From an uncultured Candidatus Saccharibacteria bacterium (GTDB lineage: Bacteria > Patescibacteriota > Minisyncoccia > Phycocordibacterales > UBA918): a stretch of DNA of 64,000 bases. The DNA lies in assembly GCA_964643955.1 (NCBI GenBank), contig CAZXUO010000004.1, forward strand, positions 3,882 to 67,881. Reading direction: 5' to 3'. The translations under genes and the position numbers were made by a program. The stretch's first letter is position 1; each line of letters starts with the position of its first letter. The notes beneath the pieces were generated by a model, which did no database searches, was not told where the DNA came from, and saw only the letters and a program-made list of their open reading frames with translations. Positions 3,629 to 48,420 of the stretch are shown here, piece after piece.

Positions 3629-4732
3629 CTAACGATTCATCGGCATCACCAGGTACCTGAGTGATTTTTCCGCAACCCCCTCCATCACCATCGGCCGGCC
3701 AACACCCGCAAAACGCAATACGATACTGTCGTCGATAAATGAACCGAGCGGATCATTGAGATAGCGCTGATTGAAACTCAATGCGAGCTCCTCTCCTTCG
3801 ATAGTTGCACTGATACCCTCTTCGGTTTTTCCGAGCTCCCCGTTGTCTGATGAAAAGGTGACGGTATTGCTCTTTGGATCGATAGTTGCGCGCACCTGAA
3901 GAAATGCATTCGTAAAGATGTTTGTCTTTTTGAGTGCGTGCGTGATGTCGCCACGCAATACCGTTGCATTTGTTTTAAATTCTTTTGGAATAATCTGCTG
4001 GTAGTCAGGGAACGACGCTTCAGTGAGTCGTGTTGCCACATAGACTCCCTTTGCAAAACGGAGTGCGAGCTGGTTTTCAGACACGACCATCTGTGGATCT
4101 TCATCTACGAGCTCTATGATCCGTGCAATCTCAAGAGCATTTTTAAACGGCACCAAGAGCGATGTCTCGAGAGTGACTCCCTTTTGTGGTACCACCTTTT
4201 CAATGAGGCGAAATGAGTCAGTTGCGACAAATGTGAGTGAGTGTTCTTTCTGTTGATGAATGAACACACTCCCAAGCTCGGGCTTGATGGATGATTGCGA
4301 CGCAGCAAACGCTGCTGTTTTTATACCAAGCGCAAAGAGTGCGCCGTTGAGTGTTTGTGTATTGCCCGAAAGCTGTTGGATTGCCGGAAACTCTTCTGAC
4401 GGAAGTGTTTTGATTGTTGTTCGAGATTTTCCCGACTCAACCACAAGCATATCTCCCTCTGACTTCAGGGTTACATTGCGATCATTTAAAAGCTGGACCG
4501 TCTGCATCAAGAGCGCTCCCGGCACTGCATGCACTCCCTCGCTTTTTACCACACCCGGAAGAACTACTTCGGCACTTAATTCCAAATTTGTTGCACGGAG
4601 CGTGAGTTGACCTTCGGTGTTTACGCTAAAGAGCACACACTGGAGTACGGGAAGTGTTTGATGCTTCGCACTGATACGTGCGAGTATCTCGAGTGCTTGC
4701 AGTAGTTTCTCCTTTTCAACATTGATGTGCAT
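3629..4732 (-). CDS. dnaN: DNA polymerase III beta subunit (sliding clamp)
   Basis: 367 aa, N-terminal MHINVEKEKLLQALEILARIS..., three-domain clamp architecture; dnaA-dnaN synteny. Confidence 0.9.
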   Translation of the reverse strand: MHINVEKEKLLQALEILARISAKHQTLPVLQCVLFSVNTEGQLTLRATNLELSAEVVLPGVVKSEGVHAVPGALLMQTVQLLNDRNVTLKSEGDMLVVESGKSRTTIKTLPSEEFPAIQQLSGNTQTLNGALFALGIKTAAFAASQSSIKPELGSVFIHQQKEHSLTFVATDSFRLIEKVVPQKGVTLETSLLVPFKNALEIARIIELVDEDPQMVVSENQLALRFAKGVYVATRLTEASFPDYQQIIPKEFKTNATVLRGDITHALKKTNIFTNAFLQVRATIDPKSNTVTFSSDNGELGKTEEGISATIEGEELALSFNQRYLNDPLGSFIDDSIVLRFAGVGRPMVMEGVAEKSLRYLVMPMNR

Positions 4733-29297: not shown

Positions 29298-29337
29298 AAC
29301 AAAACCGCGCGGCCGTAGGCCGCGCGGTTTTGTTATT
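29298..29337. terminator. Rho-independent terminator
   Basis: aacaaaaccgcgcggcc-gta-ggccgcgcggttttgtt. Confidence 0.7.
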
Positions 29338-29921
29338 TATTCAGGCAACACTACTTGTATCTCCCCGTCCTCGTCGTCAGCTGCGGGACGACGACTTCGG
29401 CGTCCGGGCGCGACGCGCTTCCCAATCAAAAACTTCCGTGGTTCTTCATCCATGTCCATGAAGTCATCCGCAATCTCACGCAAGCGCGCCGACGATGAAC
29501 GTCCAAATGCGATGATCTCTACCTGACACCCGTCTGCTTTGATGTATTCGACGAGTGGTACGAAGTCACCGTCGCCGGTTGCGAGCACGACCACATCCAC
29601 TTTCTTCGCGTACTTTACCGCGTCGATCGCCATGCCGACATCCCAGTCAGCTTTCTTTGCGCCGCCAAAAAATATTTGGAGGTCTTTTGTCTTTGTTTCG
29701 ATACCGATTTTACCGAGCGCCTCAAAGAAGGCCTGCTCTTCCCCGCTTTCGGTCGTGACGACGTACGCGAGTGCGCGCACGAGCTTTCGATCGCCGAGTG
29801 CTTTCTTTAAGACTGCATCAAAATTGACCTTTGATCGATAGATATTCTTTGCGCTATGGTAAAGGTTCTGGGTATCGATAAATACCGCAACGCGCTGCTC
29901 CTTGTGTTTAATTGTACTCAT
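29337..29921 (-). CDS. NYN-domain (LabA-like PIN-related) protein
   Basis: VAVFIDTQNLY... and DVVVLATGDGDFVPLV motifs of NYN/COG1432. Confidence 0.7.
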   Translation of the reverse strand: MSTIKHKEQRVAVFIDTQNLYHSAKNIYRSKVNFDAVLKKALGDRKLVRALAYVVTTESGEEQAFFEALGKIGIETKTKDLQIFFGGAKKADWDVGMAIDAVKYAKKVDVVVLATGDGDFVPLVEYIKADGCQVEIIAFGRSSSARLREIADDFMDMDEEPRKFLIGKRVAPGRRSRRPAADDEDGEIQVVLPE

Positions 29922-37226: not shown

Positions 37227-38490
37227 AATCGTGAAAAAAGATACGGTGTTTACAAAAGAGGTAGAAAAAGTACACATGACCGCGCGCGAGCGGGATGTTT
37301 TGCGTGAACGCATTGTTTCATACATGGAGTACCATCCGCTCCATATGCCGGTCGTGCCGAAGGTCCAGTCATTTCAATATTACGCAGCACGCACCATTTC
37401 TTCATTTGGTTCGTGGACGATGCGTGCCCGCTCACTCGCGAGCGCAGCAGCGGTCTTCCTTTTTATCGCTATCCCTGTTGCCGCAGAGCAGGCGCTTCCG
37501 GGCGACGCGCTCTATCCGGTGAAGGTCCGTCTCAATGAGGGTATTCGCGCGCAACTCACGTTTTCTCCGTATGAAAAAATGCAGTGGGAAACCAAGCGTA
37601 TTGAGCGCCGCGTTGCTGAAGCACGACTCCTTGCACAAGAGGGGAATTTGACCGAAGAAAAAGAGGAGGTACTTGAAGCGACGGCTCGTGAGCACGCAAG
37701 CTCGTTTCAGGCACAGCTCGCTGAGATGCGTGTTGATGACGAAGAGGGGGCAGCGCTCGCTGAAGTCGCGCTTGAGTCTGCACTTGAGGTGCAGTCGGCA
37801 GTACTCGCGTCAGATGCAGATGTACAGGCGTTTTCAACAACGACAAATGGAGGAAACGTGAACGGACTTGCAGAGATCGTCCGCACTGCACGCAATGACG
37901 TTGCTTCAAGTGCAACGAGCACGCCTTCGTATGAGCGTCTTATTGGCCGCGTAGAAGAAAACACGACACGAATGTACGTACTTGTTGATTCGCTCAATGG
38001 TGAGCTTACTGAGGCGCAAGAACGAGAGGTTATGGAGCGTACTGCACGCGTTGATGCCGATATCATCGCAGCAAAAGAAGCGTACGTGCGCGGAGAGCAC
38101 GATGCGGCTGTTGCGACACTTCGACACGTACTCGCAACAACGGAGAAACTCATTGCGTTTCTAAATAGCATTGATATTCGTGCGTCAGTCTCACTGCAAG
38201 CGCTCGTACCAAGCACTGAGTCAGCAACCGTACAGATACTGTATGACGAACTTGCAACACTTGCGTCTCGACGCGCCGCTGTTGAGGTGAGTATGATTGC
38301 GCTCGGTGAGACGATAAGCACGGAGCTCGATGCATTTGATGCAGAAATCATGACTGCAGAAGGATCGCTCGCTGCAGACAATGTCGTGGATGGTGAGGCG
38401 GCTATCGATCGCGCAAAAGACATCATGCTCGATCTTGAAGTACGTGTTTCTGTGGGCGAGGGGACTGGCACGACGACGCCTTCAAACTAG
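37213..38490 (+). CDS. Putative anti-sigma factor (membrane-anchored, DUF5667-like coiled-coil domain)
   Basis: Overlaps sigma gene by 14 nt; one TM near residue 90; extracytoplasmic helical domain. Confidence 0.45.
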   Translation: MKKNRIVKKDTVFTKEVEKVHMTARERDVLRERIVSYMEYHPLHMPVVPKVQSFQYYAARTISSFGSWTMRARSLASAAAVFLFIAIPVAAEQALPGDALYPVKVRLNEGIRAQLTFSPYEKMQWETKRIERRVAEARLLAQEGNLTEEKEEVLEATAREHASSFQAQLAEMRVDDEEGAALAEVALESALEVQSAVLASDADVQAFSTTTNGGNVNGLAEIVRTARNDVASSATSTPSYERLIGRVEENTTRMYVLVDSLNGELTEAQEREVMERTARVDADIIAAKEAYVRGEHDAAVATLRHVLATTEKLIAFLNSIDIRASVSLQALVPSTESATVQILYDELATLASRRAAVEVSMIALGETISTELDAFDAEIMTAEGSLAADNVVDGEAAIDRAKDIMLDLEVRVSVGEGTGTTTPSN

Positions 38491-38566
38491 ACCTGCTTTT
38501 TAGTTTTCCACGGGTATAGGTAGTGTTGCTTGACGATTACTCGGTAGGAGGTGTACACTCTTTTTT

Positions 38567-38644
38567 ATGCGTATTGCATACACAGTCTGGGCACTCTTTG
38601 CACTCATTCTTACGATGAATGTGGAGCCGGCTCGTGTTGCATAA
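38567..38644 (+). CDS. Candidate 25-aa hydrophobic peptide MRIAYTVWALFALILTMNVEPARVA
   Basis: Preceded by TTGACG-18-TACACT promoter-like sequence; followed by terminator at about 38655-38700; weak SD spacing. Confidence 0.2.
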   Translation: MRIAYTVWALFALILTMNVEPARVA

Positions 38645-38822
38645 GTAAACACACTCCAAGAACAAAAAACCGGCTCCACACAGGGAGTCGGTTTTTTGTT
38701 CAAGAGGTGATGTGTATCGGAATGTGGTGGAGAATATCGCCACTGCATTCCGGGCCGCATCGTGCGGAGGCCGGACGCAGGGGGAGTCCTGCGAAGATCT
38801 TAGATAAAAGGGGAGAGTGACA

Positions 38823-39032
38823 ATGGCAAAAGGAGACCCGCTGCTTTCAAGAGGTGACTATGGAGTCGTGAACGCGGAATGTCCGCCGGAACCGGTGGAC
38901 ATTCTCGCAGGGCAGAAGTCGGCCGATAGCACGGTTCGGCCGCAGAGCTCGGTGGCAGTCGCAAAGCCTCGTCCTTCCCGGAGATCCAAGGAGATGGGGT
39001 GGATCAGGGGCTGGGAAAGCCGTATGGACTGA
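38823..39032 (+). CDS. Short ORF A in GC-rich island (69 aa)
   Basis: Strong SD aaaggggagag 6 nt upstream; about 65% GC unlike flanking DNA. Confidence 0.25.
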   Translation: MAKGDPLLSRGDYGVVNAECPPEPVDILAGQKSADSTVRPQSSVAVAKPRPSRRSKEMGWIRGWESRMD

Positions 39033-39054
39033 ATTGACCTGAGGAGAGAAGGAT

Positions 39055-39234
39055 ATGGACGACGGATTTGAGGGCGATCGGAGCAGCGATCCGGTCGCGG
39101 GTGTACGGCTCGCATTGCGGGACTTCAAAGGAGTCAGGCGTGGGCCCGATGGGCAGCCGCTTGATCAGGAGGTTCGCCCGACCGGTGGGATTCTCGAAGA
39201 GCTCGAGAAGCATCCCGGCGCAGCAGGAGTGTGA
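39055..39234 (+). CDS. Short ORF B in GC-rich island (59 aa)
   Basis: SD gaggagagaagg upstream of ATG. Confidence 0.25.
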   Translation: MDDGFEGDRSSDPVAGVRLALRDFKGVRRGPDGQPLDQEVRPTGGILEELEKHPGAAGV

Positions 39235-39244
39235 GGAGGGACTC

Positions 39245-39475
39245 ATGTCGGAAGAAAATCGTGGACCGTCGGAGGATACGCTCTCAGGAGCTACCCCGGC
39301 AGAGTCCTTGGAAGAGGGTCCGGATGCGCTGCAGGTTCCGCTGAACGTCGGCGAACGTGAGAGCGTCTACTTTGTTCGCGGAGCCGGTGTTCGGCCGCCG
39401 GTCGGAGGAGGTACTCCTCGGCGCGGCGACGTGTGCTGGGGCGGTCGCCCTGGCGGACATGGTCCGGCACGGTGA
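39245..39475 (+). CDS. Short ORF C in GC-rich island (76 aa)
   Basis: SD gaggaggg upstream of ATG; followed by a stable hairpin and tandem terminators. Confidence 0.25.
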   Translation: MSEENRGPSEDTLSGATPAESLEEGPDALQVPLNVGERESVYFVRGAGVRPPVGGGTPRRGDVCWGGRPGGHGPAR

Positions 39476-39551
39476 TGGCTTGGCGCAGCGTTCCGAAGGA
39501 ACGTTGCGCCACCCCTTCGTTTGCACAAAAACACGACGAGACGATACTGGT

Positions 39552-39630
39552 GCCCGAGCTTCTCGGGCGCTATTTTTATATATACGAAAACCGCGCGGCC
39601 TTTGGCCGCGCGGTTTTCGTTTTTGTCGTG
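39552..39630 (+). terminator. Tandem rho-independent terminators closing the GC-rich island
   Basis: gcccgagc-ttc-tcgggc + T5, then aaaaccgcgcggcc-tttg-gccgcgcggtttt + T tract. Confidence 0.65.
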
Positions 39631-39839
39631 TATCACCGTAGTGAGACACGTTCTCCAAAAAAGAACAGAATCCCCAACACAAGCAGTGGTTCGAGCTCCT
39701 CTGGGGGAGAGGTTCAAACCGCTTCCTGCGGTCTTCCTTCGTATGCAGCATGCGTTCGCATACGAGGGTGACAAGGGTCTATACTACCGCACCATTAAAA
39801 TCAGGCAACCTTTTTGTTGTGGATGACTCTGCGAGTTTG

Positions 39840-40928
39840 CTATTCGTCTAGGTGTTGCATGAGGAAATCACGTAAGTGTGGTGCAAGTGTTTCTTGAAAG
39901 GTCTGTGCGCGGAGCGGTATGTCGCCCGCGAGTGTGTGCGAGAGGTCGAGTCCCGTTTCTGTTTTCAATGTACGGTCGATGTAGGGGAGTGTGAGCGCGC
40001 GAAGACTTTTGATTCCTTCAAGTTCGGGATTGCCGCGTGTGACGATGAGTCCGACCACCGCTCCTTCATCACTCACAATAGGTCCGCCGGATGAGCCTTG
40101 CTGTCCGACGTCTGAAGGCGCAATGCCAACGAGGTCGATTGATCCTGAGTGAAAGGTGAAGAGGCGGGTGATGCTTGTGGTGGCTATCGCGGGAATGAGT
40201 GCACCGTGCGCGTCGCGCTCAGTGAGCATTTCCGCAGGATATCCTGCGACGCGCACGGACGTTGGGTCGAAGGCCTCGTCGAGTACAAGTGGTGGCAACG
40301 CAGGAAATGATGACGGCAATTCACCATCGAGTGATGTGGTCACGTAGAGCAGCGCGAAGTCACGCTCGCCAGTACCTGATGGCTTATCGGCATAGAGTTG
40401 GTGCGCATTTTGTTCAATCCACGTCGGAGAGATGTAGAGGAGTGACGCTTCATATTTTGAGACTGCAGGATTTCCTTGGCGAATAGTACAGGTTGTCTCA
40501 GTATCTTCGACCGTTCCTGCAAGAAGAAGGAATTGCGCGACGTGTGCATTGGTGAGGATGATACCGTCTGAATCAATGAAAACACCGCTGCCGGTCGTTG
40601 CGCGGACTTTCTTTCCGGTATGCGCCGTGCAGAAGATGTTGACGAGCGCATCTTCGATAGAAACGCTCGGTACAGCGCTCGTTGCTGATACCGCGTCGAT
40701 CGTCGAGGCTTGCTGGTAGCGGGTATCGCGCTGGAGCTGTTCGGTAATGAGTGTGTTGATGCCAAGAAGTGGCGAGGTGGTGTCAGAAGGAGCTTCTATG
40801 TACGAAATATCGTAGGGACTTTCGTGCGGCCAGTATTTGGTGAGAAGATTAGCGGCACCATTTGAGAGAGCGATAAATGCAGTGAGGAGCGCGACAATCG
40901 CATCTTTTGCAATGTCCAAGTGGAACAT
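39840..40928 (-). CDS. Trypsin-like serine protease (S1C/HtrA-like, no obvious PDZ)
   Basis: Catalytic-triad context: ...TNAHV (His), D, GSSGGPIV (Ser). Confidence 0.8.
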   Translation of the reverse strand: MFHLDIAKDAIVALLTAFIALSNGAANLLTKYWPHESPYDISYIEAPSDTTSPLLGINTLITEQLQRDTRYQQASTIDAVSATSAVPSVSIEDALVNIFCTAHTGKKVRATTGSGVFIDSDGIILTNAHVAQFLLLAGTVEDTETTCTIRQGNPAVSKYEASLLYISPTWIEQNAHQLYADKPSGTGERDFALLYVTTSLDGELPSSFPALPPLVLDEAFDPTSVRVAGYPAEMLTERDAHGALIPAIATTSITRLFTFHSGSIDLVGIAPSDVGQQGSSGGPIVSDEGAVVGLIVTRGNPELEGIKSLRALTLPYIDRTLKTETGLDLSHTLAGDIPLRAQTFQETLAPHLRDFLMQHLDE

Positions 40929-41120: not shown

Positions 41121-41252
41121 ATGATCAATTTCTTTGACGGTGAGGAGCCAGCAATGGATCCAGTTGATGAGCCGGCAGAAGAAGGTGCAGCGCCTACTGA
41201 GGGCGGTGAGGTAGCAATGCCAGCCGAAGACGGGGCGATGCCAGCTGCGTAA
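41121..41252 (+). CDS. Candidate 43-aa acidic peptide
   Basis: ORF with its own downstream terminator (41266-41297); weak SD. Confidence 0.2.
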   Translation: MINFFDGEEPAMDPVDEPAEEGAAPTEGGEVAMPAEDGAMPAA

Positions 41253-41356
41253 GCATGCTATATAAAAGCCGCGCGCCCTTTGGGCGCGCGGCTTTTAGTA
41301 TGCTGTATTTTTTCCCATAAAATGCTAAAATCGTGGTGCTGTAGGAGGAAATATAC

Positions 41357-41427: not shown

Positions 41428-41432
41428 CAACA

Positions 41433-41478
41433 AAAGAAAAGACCGGCCCTTTGGGCCGGTCTTTTCTTTTGTTGTTAT
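41433..41478 (+). terminator. Rho-independent terminator after tRNA
   Basis: aaaagaaaagaccggccc-tttg-ggccggtcttttctttt. Confidence 0.7.
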
Positions 41479-41945
41479 GAAGGTGGGGGAATCGAAGGCT
41501 GGAGGTGCGCCCGCGTTGCGGGATGAAGCACTGAGGCGGGGTCGCGACCTTTTGCGAAGCAAAAGAGTTGTGACCGATTCACCTAGAAATTATGAAATAT
41601 TCTCGAAGAAGGTTGGCGGTAGGAGACGAAAAAGTTCTAACATCATCCCAGAATGGCCGTTCAAAAAAAAGCCCTGGTCTCCGGGGAGACTGGGCTTTTG
41701 GGGTCTCTATGCTCTTGTAGACGAGTCGGTATGTACACCAGATGTACATCATCCGACACGGACGACACCCAGAGGGCATATTTCGTAGCCATGGATGTAA
41801 TCGCTCACTATGATAGCATATAAGAATATATTGTCAAGTACTTGTAAAAGTTCCAACATCACCCCGGTCGGGCATCTAATTTAAGAACCTCCTACCAACA
41901 AAAAGAGCCGGCATGCCGGCTCTTTTTGTGTGGTGATAGGAAGTC

Positions 41946-48340: not shown

Positions 48341-48420
48341 AGTTTGCCTAGTGTACACGCGATCGGCTGCTTTGCAACAAAAAGACGCGCGCCCTTTGGG
48401 CGCGCGTCTTTTTTATCATC

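Follow-up and report, generated by a model that had tools for sequence, protein, structure and literature searches.

Within a 64,000-nucleotide stretch of contig CAZXUO010000004.1, from an uncultured Candidatus Saccharibacteria bacterium, which was analysed as a whole and is referred to here as the window, the interval 38740-39519 is the most GC-rich of its length: over these 780 nucleotides (nt) GC content is 0.629, against a mean of 0.503 (standard deviation 0.032) and a runner-up of 0.578 across the 64 kb. A preliminary description of this DNA had singled out an island of about 65% GC at 38750-39640 in surroundings of about 50%; the contrast is borne out, while the figure was slightly high (0.614 over that span, 0.629 over the narrower one). 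The island, whose + strand is G-rich and purine-rich, carries three consecutive short open reading frames (ORF1, ORF2 and ORF3), followed by a hairpin and two intrinsic terminators, and is preceded by a leader of about 250 nt that lies upstream of the coordinates first described (Table 1). Genes for an extracytoplasmic function (ECF) sigma factor and a DUF5667 protein are located upstream of the island, and the downstream neighbour, convergent to it, is a gene for a Trypsin_2 protease. Exact-sequence look-ups assign this DNA to a metagenome-assembled genome of Candidatus Paceibacterota. We consider it likely, on comparative grounds, that the island forms the protein-coding portion of one + strand transcription unit of about 1.05 kb (approximately 38566 to 39625), representing a three-gene operon gated by an attenuator.

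Relatives of the locus were gathered by cluster look-ups, profile searches and contig look-ups. The comparison set comprises three diverged lineages (L002, with L014 and L015; L013; and L016) plus one close strain (L018/L019, 98.65% identical). A further contig of low coverage (L003, 1.7x) matches the window only from 39080 on; its positions 1-748 are unrelated GC-rich sequence, and it is probably chimeric.

Table 1. Positions of the predicted features of the locus in the window (SD, Shine-Dalgarno sequence; aa, amino acids; UTR, untranslated region)
Feature	Position	Strand	Details
Sigma-70-type promoter	38530-38559	+	From promoter scan: TTGACG, 18-nt spacer, TACACT; TG before the -10 element (extended -10)
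Mini-ORF	38567-38644	+	25 codons, MRIAYTVWALFALILTMNVEPARVA; starts 7 nt past the -10 element
Antiterminator helix	38620-38680	+	TGTGGAGCCGG (38620-38630) pairs with CCGGCTCCACA (38670-38680), the 5' arm of the leader terminator
Leader intrinsic terminator	38660-38702	+	18-bp stem between an A-tract and a U-tract; -29.3 kcal/mol
Post-terminator hairpins	38709-38761, 38762-38776, 38776-38793	+	In the ORF1 5' UTR; fold z-score -3.2
ORF1	38823-39032	+	69 aa; SD GGGGAGAG at 38810-38817
ORF2	39055-39234	+	59 aa; SD GAGGAG at 39041-39046; NCBI KBD21_04385, hypothetical protein
ORF3	39245-39475	+	76 aa; SD GAGGAGGG at 39233-39240; NCBI KBD21_04390, hypothetical protein
3' hairpin	39482-39510	+	13 bp, 7 nt past the ORF3 stop; followed by a conserved ACCCC
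Terminator 1	39548-39577	+	Intrinsic; 39548-39572 in the terminator scan; conserved in L002 and L013, the changes being one-sided and compatible
Terminator 2	39584-39626	+	Intrinsic; 39584-39620 in the terminator scan; 17-bp stem, A-tract, U-tract

Three cistrons and their conservation

The ORF list and the sequence itself confirm the three consecutive SD-led ORFs that had been reported on the + strand. Each is preceded by an SD of the GGAG type, 5-8 nt before its ATG, and not one of 2000 dinucleotide-preserving shuffles of the island yielded three non-overlapping ORFs of at least 50 aa with an SD and an ATG. On the minus strand the ORFs are short and mutually overlapping, as had also been stated; a long antisense ORF called in L002 by the Joint Genome Institute (JGI) was considered and rejected, being neither conserved nor intact in the window, where it is split into short pieces. 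The products of ORF2 and ORF3 have already been deposited (MBP9749938.1 and MBP9749939.1, respectively), and the NCBI record of the window lineage carries no annotation of ORF1.

Several independent features of the alignments bear on the coding status of these ORFs. In L002, L013 and L016 all three cistrons have retained their SD, their ATG and their stop codon, and indels within the three ORFs are multiples of 3, save for one of 11 nt in the tail of ORF1. The stop codon of ORF2 lies in or beside the SD of ORF3 in every lineage (the two overlap in the window), which suggests translational coupling. Among all lineages compared, the third codon position is the most variable in each of the ORFs (26/24/45 by codon position in ORF1), and codon columns showing only synonymous variation number 18 in ORF1, 17 in ORF2 and 12 in ORF3. 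Estimates by the method of Nei and Gojobori (NG86), made between the window and L002, give ratios of nonsynonymous to synonymous change (omega) of 0.28 for ORF2, 0.32 for ORF3 and 0.62 for ORF1; the proportion of synonymous differences (pS) is 0.60 in ORF2 and 0.39 in ORF3, compared with saturated values of 0.65-0.69, and omega of 0.04-0.07, in the flanking sigma factor and DUF5667 genes. In the same pair, the C-terminal 46 codons of ORF3 differ at 5, 1 and 16 sites by codon position (p=3e-4), and in the close strain all eight single-nucleotide polymorphisms (SNPs) of ORF3 are synonymous and fall at third positions, the protein being identical.

The regions under constraint differ among the three. 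The N-terminal portion of ORF1, about 34 aa in length (MAKGDPLLSRGDYG[VI]VN.ECPP...), is near-invariant and is kept in L002/L014 (P0019) and in L016 (P0021). ORF2 is kept in L002, L013 and L016, with the motifs DPVAG, R.GP.GQP and GGI..L, and ORF3, for which the homologues are P0017 (in L013) and the copies in L002 and L016 only, combines a variable N-terminus with a conserved C-terminus containing Cys, Trp and His. On this comparative evidence ORF2, ORF3 and the N-terminus of ORF1 are truly coding, and purifying selection, judged from the same substitutions, is still acting on the ORFs.

No larger family accommodates their products. A Pfam search with the window ORFs returned no family at E<=0.1, searches of NCBIfam, PHROGs and PADLOC gave nothing at E<=10, and the best match of an ORF3 profile in the PDB reached only E of about 1, in keeping with the earlier remark that the small proteins have no recognisable family. 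The three peptides, when concatenated, had no match at E<=1 in 5.8 billion clusters, in a search that apparently missed members of their own family too; profile searches of these clusters and an exhaustive HMMER search of 1.84 billion representatives (the latter for ORF3 only) recovered the same narrow family alone, and no larger homologue was present in either collection. Two weak matches, P0016 (a giant protein with Big_5/RTX features) and P0018 (a repeat protein), were rejected, their scores having been summed over seven repeats and their hhalign probability being 1.3%. BLAST comparisons with phages and plasmids gave no match, nor did scans of genome, metagenome and viral contigs with the protease, ORF3, ORF1 and a 23-mer of the leader as queries. 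Paralogy among the three was also rejected, as mutual comparisons indicate that the products are unrelated. As far as these collections reach, the three orphan families are confined to a very narrow clade of Paceibacterota, within the candidate phyla radiation (CPR). The suggestion that the island could be a novel small-protein operon is upheld to this extent: all three ORFs are conserved as coding in diverged relatives, and they belong to no known family. They share with other orphan genes for hypothetical proteins the lack of a domain (ORF2 and ORF3) and a very narrow distribution, and differ from the usual case in the comparative evidence for coding, the unannotated third cistron and the conserved, structured transcription unit that would contain them.

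Gly, Pro and Arg together make up 36% of the amino acids in the three products, which are hydrophilic (grand average of hydropathy, GRAVY, -0.21 to -0.97), acidic to neutral, and contain 8-23% Gly. AlphaFold2 (AF2) models of ORF2 (two short helices; predicted local distance difference test score, pLDDT, 67) and of ORF3 (a beta-hairpin at residues 30-43 only; pLDDT 52) are of low confidence; the products are possibly disordered. This composition accounts for most of the GC content as well. The GC predicted from the amino acids and the codon usage of the genome is 0.58, 0.60 and 0.64 for ORF1, ORF2 and ORF3, versus 0.61, 0.64 and 0.66 observed, the remainder lying in modestly raised GC at third codon positions (GC3); the homologous ORF regions of relatives are also GC-rich (0.60-0.62), and the copy of the locus in L002 occupies the same sigma factor/DUF5667 context. 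High GC is thus mostly a by-product of proteins rich in Gly, Pro, Arg and Ala, together with mildly raised GC3. Since it is explained by amino-acid content and is common to relatives, and since terminator 2 is of a type native to this genome, the horizontal acquisition that had been read from compositional atypicality is not supported. The case cautions that high GC is no proof of foreign origin where amino-acid composition accounts for it.

The conserved leader

Sequence identity between the window and L002, taken per 50-nt interval, is about 52% before the predicted promoter's -10 element and jumps to 96-100% exactly there; it stays at 92-100% up to about 38800, declines to 82-86% up to about 38900 and then drops to 36-46%; in the flanks it ranges from 50 to 90%. 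The leader as a whole (38552-38800, 249 nt) is 96.4% identical to that of L002 and 93.6% to that of L016. For comparison, the tRNAs are 100% identical, and the neighbouring genes, against the near-invariant leader, are only about 77% identical, with saturated synonymous sites. The strong conservation of the leader, evident in these alignments, is accompanied by a fold z-score of -6.3. Both promoter hexamers are kept in L002/L014, in which the spacer differs.

Close behind the promoter is a mini-ORF that may be leaderless, and whose product is a single hydrophobic helix (GRAVY +1.10). It is kept in L002 and L016 with four amino-acid changes and two codons showing only synonymous variation; none of its approximately 18 synonymous sites is changed between the window and L002. 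Two segments of potential pairing fall within it, segment 1 (at about 38580-38597) and segment 2 (38620-38637, comprising codons 18-24), and a helix between them is predicted, whose pairing is preserved, in a reading by eye, by the substitutions in L016 (C-G to U.G). Segment 2 is also predicted to pair with the 5' arm of the leader terminator. This antiterminator helix, of 11 perfect base pairs, has a folding energy of -25.3 kcal/mol when segment 4 is withheld, and forms part of the minimum free energy structure predicted for the nascent RNA when it extends as far as segment 3; it is invariant across the four lineages and hence beyond a covariation test. The terminator stem itself carries one G.U to G-C change in L014. 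A weak Rfam match to Thr_leader at this position (22.6 bits, versus a gathering score of 55) reflects only the shape of the terminator.

Between the terminator and the SD of ORF1 lie some 90-100 nt of conserved hairpins. These are 92-96% identical in L002, L014 and L016, and their substitutions are mostly in loops or are switches between G.U and Watson-Crick pairs. The promoter scan found no promoter-like site between the leader terminator and ORF1, so expression of the three genes probably needs readthrough of that terminator.

In its overall plan the leader looks like a ribosome-dependent attenuator. As in the trp, his, leu and thr leaders and the antibiotic-sensing leaders of the erm/ABC-F type, a short upstream ORF and an intrinsic terminator precede the first structural gene, and the predicted 1:2, 2:3 and 3:4 helices are mutually exclusive, with segment 2 placed in the end of the mini-ORF, where a ribosome could mask it. 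It departs from these leader-peptide systems in several ways, including a mini-ORF that has no regulatory codon run and is possibly leaderless, equally conserved hairpins that extend for about 100 nt past the terminator, and a cargo of three orphan small proteins rather than biosynthetic or resistance genes; the leader models of Rfam score far under threshold on this sequence.

When variants of the sigma factor/DUF5667 pair were looked up for additional copies of the island, most such contigs were found to end at or before the leader. Several independent assemblies break in it or at its edge (around 38550-38671 of the window), at the ends of L005, L008 and L017 and at the start of L016. Co-occurring strains with a shared, identical segment amid divergent flanks would be expected to give this pattern.

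The 3' hairpin and terminators

The hairpin just beyond ORF3 had been described as a 13-bp stem with a GAAG tetraloop at about 39480-39510. The 13-bp stem stands; the tetraloop does not, the loop being a 3-nt GAA or, if 12 bp are counted, CGAAG. The hairpin is fully paired in three lineages with compensatory double changes in 5 of its 13 pairs, pairing collapses in controls slid by 1-3 columns, and an SNP of the close strain (39504 T>C) converts a G.U to a G-C pair. The apical TTCC/GGAA pairs and the ACCCC that follows the stem are conserved in sequence in three lineages, which hints at a specific binding partner, and L016 has a hairpin of unlike sequence at the same position. Both of the consecutive intrinsic terminators noted earlier at the end of the region were recovered by the terminator scan. 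In terminator 1 a second SNP of the close strain (39551 T>C) changes U.G to C-G, and terminator 2, which is probably bidirectional, shows two compensatory pair changes in L013. Judged by these changes, the 3' hairpin and the terminators are real. A long, perfect hairpin right after the last stop codon, kept by compensatory changes, recalls the 3' stem-loops that stabilise mRNAs; unlike those, it precedes two terminators and is not the terminator itself.

A selenocysteine insertion sequence (SECIS), with the UGA of ORF3 as a selenocysteine codon, was also considered for this hairpin and rejected: L013 reads TGATGA at this position, L016 closes its ORF3 with TAG, an indel of 10 nt lies downstream in L002, and the frame beyond the UGA is not preserved and crosses both terminators.

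Terminator 2 is of a stereotyped form that recurs in the window at 29301-29340, 41259-41301 and 48386-48406. This form, which is probably bidirectional, opens with an A-tract and closes with a T-tract; the CGCGCG-rich stem between them has about 10-12 bp and carries a 3-nt loop, which is TTT except at 29301-29340, where it is GTA. In L002 terminator 2 lacks its loop and 3' arm, in whose place stands a poly-G run (4390-4420) that looks like an assembly artefact. About 200 nt of non-coding sequence (39640-39840) separate the terminators from the protease gene, whose 3' end faces them, and contain a segment kept in L013 (CTCCAAAAAAGAACAGAATCCCCAACAC, at 39653-39680) and hairpins at about 39697-39730 and 39741-39775; the protease mRNA may have its 3' UTR here, or the stretch may be a small RNA.

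Interpretation and setting of the locus

The elements described above are most easily reconciled in a scheme in which the sigma-70-type promoter would drive the structured leader, and the 3' end of the mini-ORF (segment 2) would have two alternative pairing partners, the segment upstream of it and the terminator's 5' arm, a four-segment logic that would constitute a transcription attenuator dependent on the ribosome. Transcripts reading through the terminator would carry three closely spaced, separately initiated cistrons, the translation of ORF2 and ORF3 being coupled, and the mRNA would end with the covarying hairpin, probably an element for 3' stability or protein binding, and the two terminators after it. 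The single transcript, the attenuation mechanism and the roles of the hairpins are what we infer from this arrangement.

A number of observations weigh against such a scheme. The mini-ORF MRIAYTVWALFALILTMNVEPARVA has no run of regulatory codons, with single Tyr, Trp and Phe codons in segment 1, and its peptide contains neither a known arrest motif nor the clustered regulatory codons of attenuators; its AUG lies within a 5' hairpin that would hinder leaderless initiation. The leader is too invariant for covariation (no compensatory pairs), and only four lineages, closely related at the locus, are at hand. Among the cistrons, ORF1 is the weakest coding case, its C-terminal third being poorly conserved, as its overall omega reflects. 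The 11-nt indel in its tail (38950-39035) separates the window lineage from L002 and L016, and the homologous nucleotides of the C-terminus give GDGVDQGL in the window when read in the shifted frame, against GRGLDEEL in L002; an ORF of near-equal length persists in the window despite the indel, and on this slight evidence the window lineage may have undergone a frameshift in the tail. L016 has a different C-terminal tail in ORF3, and the AF2 models, besides being of low confidence, derive from alignments of two sequences.

A reading of the island as structured non-coding RNA, or as a long UTR with structure, in which the ORFs would be mere by-products of GC-rich sequence, appears very improbable. 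Both strands fold more stably than shuffled sequences (z-scores of -4.3 on the + strand and -5.3 on the - strand), local hairpins occur inside ORF1 (38877-38904), GC-rich sequence is naturally poor in stop codons, and the low pS of ORF3 relative to the flanking genes hints at a constraint at the RNA level on top of coding. However, much of the fold z-score is due to the terminal hairpin and the terminators, and between lineages only 36-46% of its central part (38900-39050) can be aligned, leaving no long conserved RNA there. Four tRNAs alone reach the gathering score in the window with Rfam 15, whose families include RNase P RNA, tmRNA, SRP RNA, 6S RNA, riboswitches, group I/II introns and large ncRNAs, a search of 38300-40000 at E<=10 yielded only low-scoring look-alikes of terminators, and ARAGORN found no tmRNA; a known structured RNA, such as RNase P RNA or tmRNA, had been named at the outset as a finding that would overturn the observation, which survives this comparison. 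With the third-position bias, the SNPs that are exclusively synonymous, the indels in multiples of 3 and the conserved SD, ATG and stop signals, this explanation is largely refuted for ORF2 and ORF3. The idea, raised in the preliminary description, that the island is the decayed remnant of a horizontally acquired GC-rich gene, now in frameshifted pieces, is scarcely tenable either. It could draw on the successive frames (0, +1 and +2) of ORF1-3, on the atypical GC and on the possible frameshift in the ORF1 tail, yet in four lineages every piece retains an SD, an ATG and a stop of its own, no longer homologue exists in the databases, phages or plasmids searched (the weak matches to P0016 and P0018 failing the profile comparison), the GC is accounted for by amino-acid composition, the terminators are of native type, and purifying selection appears to be ongoing.

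The interval 38566-38702 might be an independent gene, which would yield either a small RNA of about 135 nt or an mRNA for a hydrophobic peptide of 25 aa resembling a type I toxin, with ORF1-3 being expressed separately or by chance readthrough; we regard this as unlikely, but as an explanation that still carries some weight. Its own promoter, the strong and symmetric terminator, nucleotide conservation near the level of tRNA genes, an AUG sequestered by the 5' hairpin, the single hydrophobic helix of the peptide and the absence of regulatory codon runs are all in its favour. Against it, the 11-bp pairing of the mini-ORF's end with the 5' arm of the terminator is what an attenuator requires and is improbable by chance, conservation is unbroken over the 100 nt from the terminator to the SD of ORF1, and the scan disclosed no promoter-like site for ORF1-3, or on the minus strand for an antisense RNA. 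ORF1-3 might encode precursors of ribosomally synthesized and post-translationally modified peptides (RiPPs), or secreted signalling peptides, processed by the adjacent trypsin-like protease. We find this improbable: among 15 neighbours (a Pfam scan of 30.5-48.4 kb) there is no modifying enzyme, transporter or immunity gene, those other than the protease being housekeeping genes or lacking a Pfam hit, the products lack a signal peptide and, in any conserved position, a Gly-Gly leader motif, and the C-terminal tail of ORF3 is not retained in L016, even though the invariant N-terminus and hypervariable C-terminus of ORF1, the variable N-terminus and conserved Cys/Trp/His-containing C-terminus of ORF3, and the adjacent, convergent Trypsin_2 gene are features that such a role could explain.

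Returning to the operon gated by an attenuator, with control of its mRNA probably exerted at both ends, our best guess is that its products are small binding or regulatory partners that act jointly and are produced only when the attenuator opens. They call to mind the hydrophilins and Gly-rich stress proteins in being small and hydrophilic, in a Gly content that exceeds the 6% defining hydrophilins, in their low-confidence models and in the adjacency of the operon to a pair formed by an ECF sigma factor and its anti-sigma factor; unlike hydrophilins, they do not reach a hydrophilicity index above 1, as their GRAVY values indicate, and have no sequence similarity to them. A literature search on DUF5667 and on small proteins and non-coding RNA in Patescibacteria found nothing relevant. 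We also entertain, as a speculation of rather low probability, that the leader represents an undescribed class of cis-regulatory RNA in CPR bacteria, in which a translation-sensing attenuator coupled to the downstream hairpins gates three orphan proteins working as a unit of importance to the clade, one possibility being that they bind conserved hairpins in the mRNA that encodes them.

CPR bacteria have not been cultivated, and many of their small genes are either missing from annotations or regarded with doubt. A region said to be without long ORFs proves here to be coding, in what is likely a three-cistron operon, and ORF1 is added to its annotation; the locus offers a testable case, in the Paceibacterota, of leader-mediated control and of orphan small proteins under selection. 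The narrow distribution of these genes limits their wider impact.

Beyond the immediate neighbours, the locus is set among housekeeping genes, including those for a CCA-adding enzyme, a UPF0102 protein, tRNAs, prephenate dehydratase, RNase Y, MgsA, ClpP and trigger factor. Two other segments of this neighbourhood merit mention. About 500 nt on the 3' side of tRNA-Gly(UCC) (41430-41940) contain only short, overlapping ORFs and have no Rfam match, and may be non-coding or the home of an undescribed RNA. At 41121-41252 a very acidic ORF of 43 aa (MINFFDGEEPAMDPVDEPAEEGAAPTEGGEVAMPAEDGAMPAA) precedes a terminator of the stereotyped form; this ORF, also called in Logan contig L001, represents a further candidate for a small protein.

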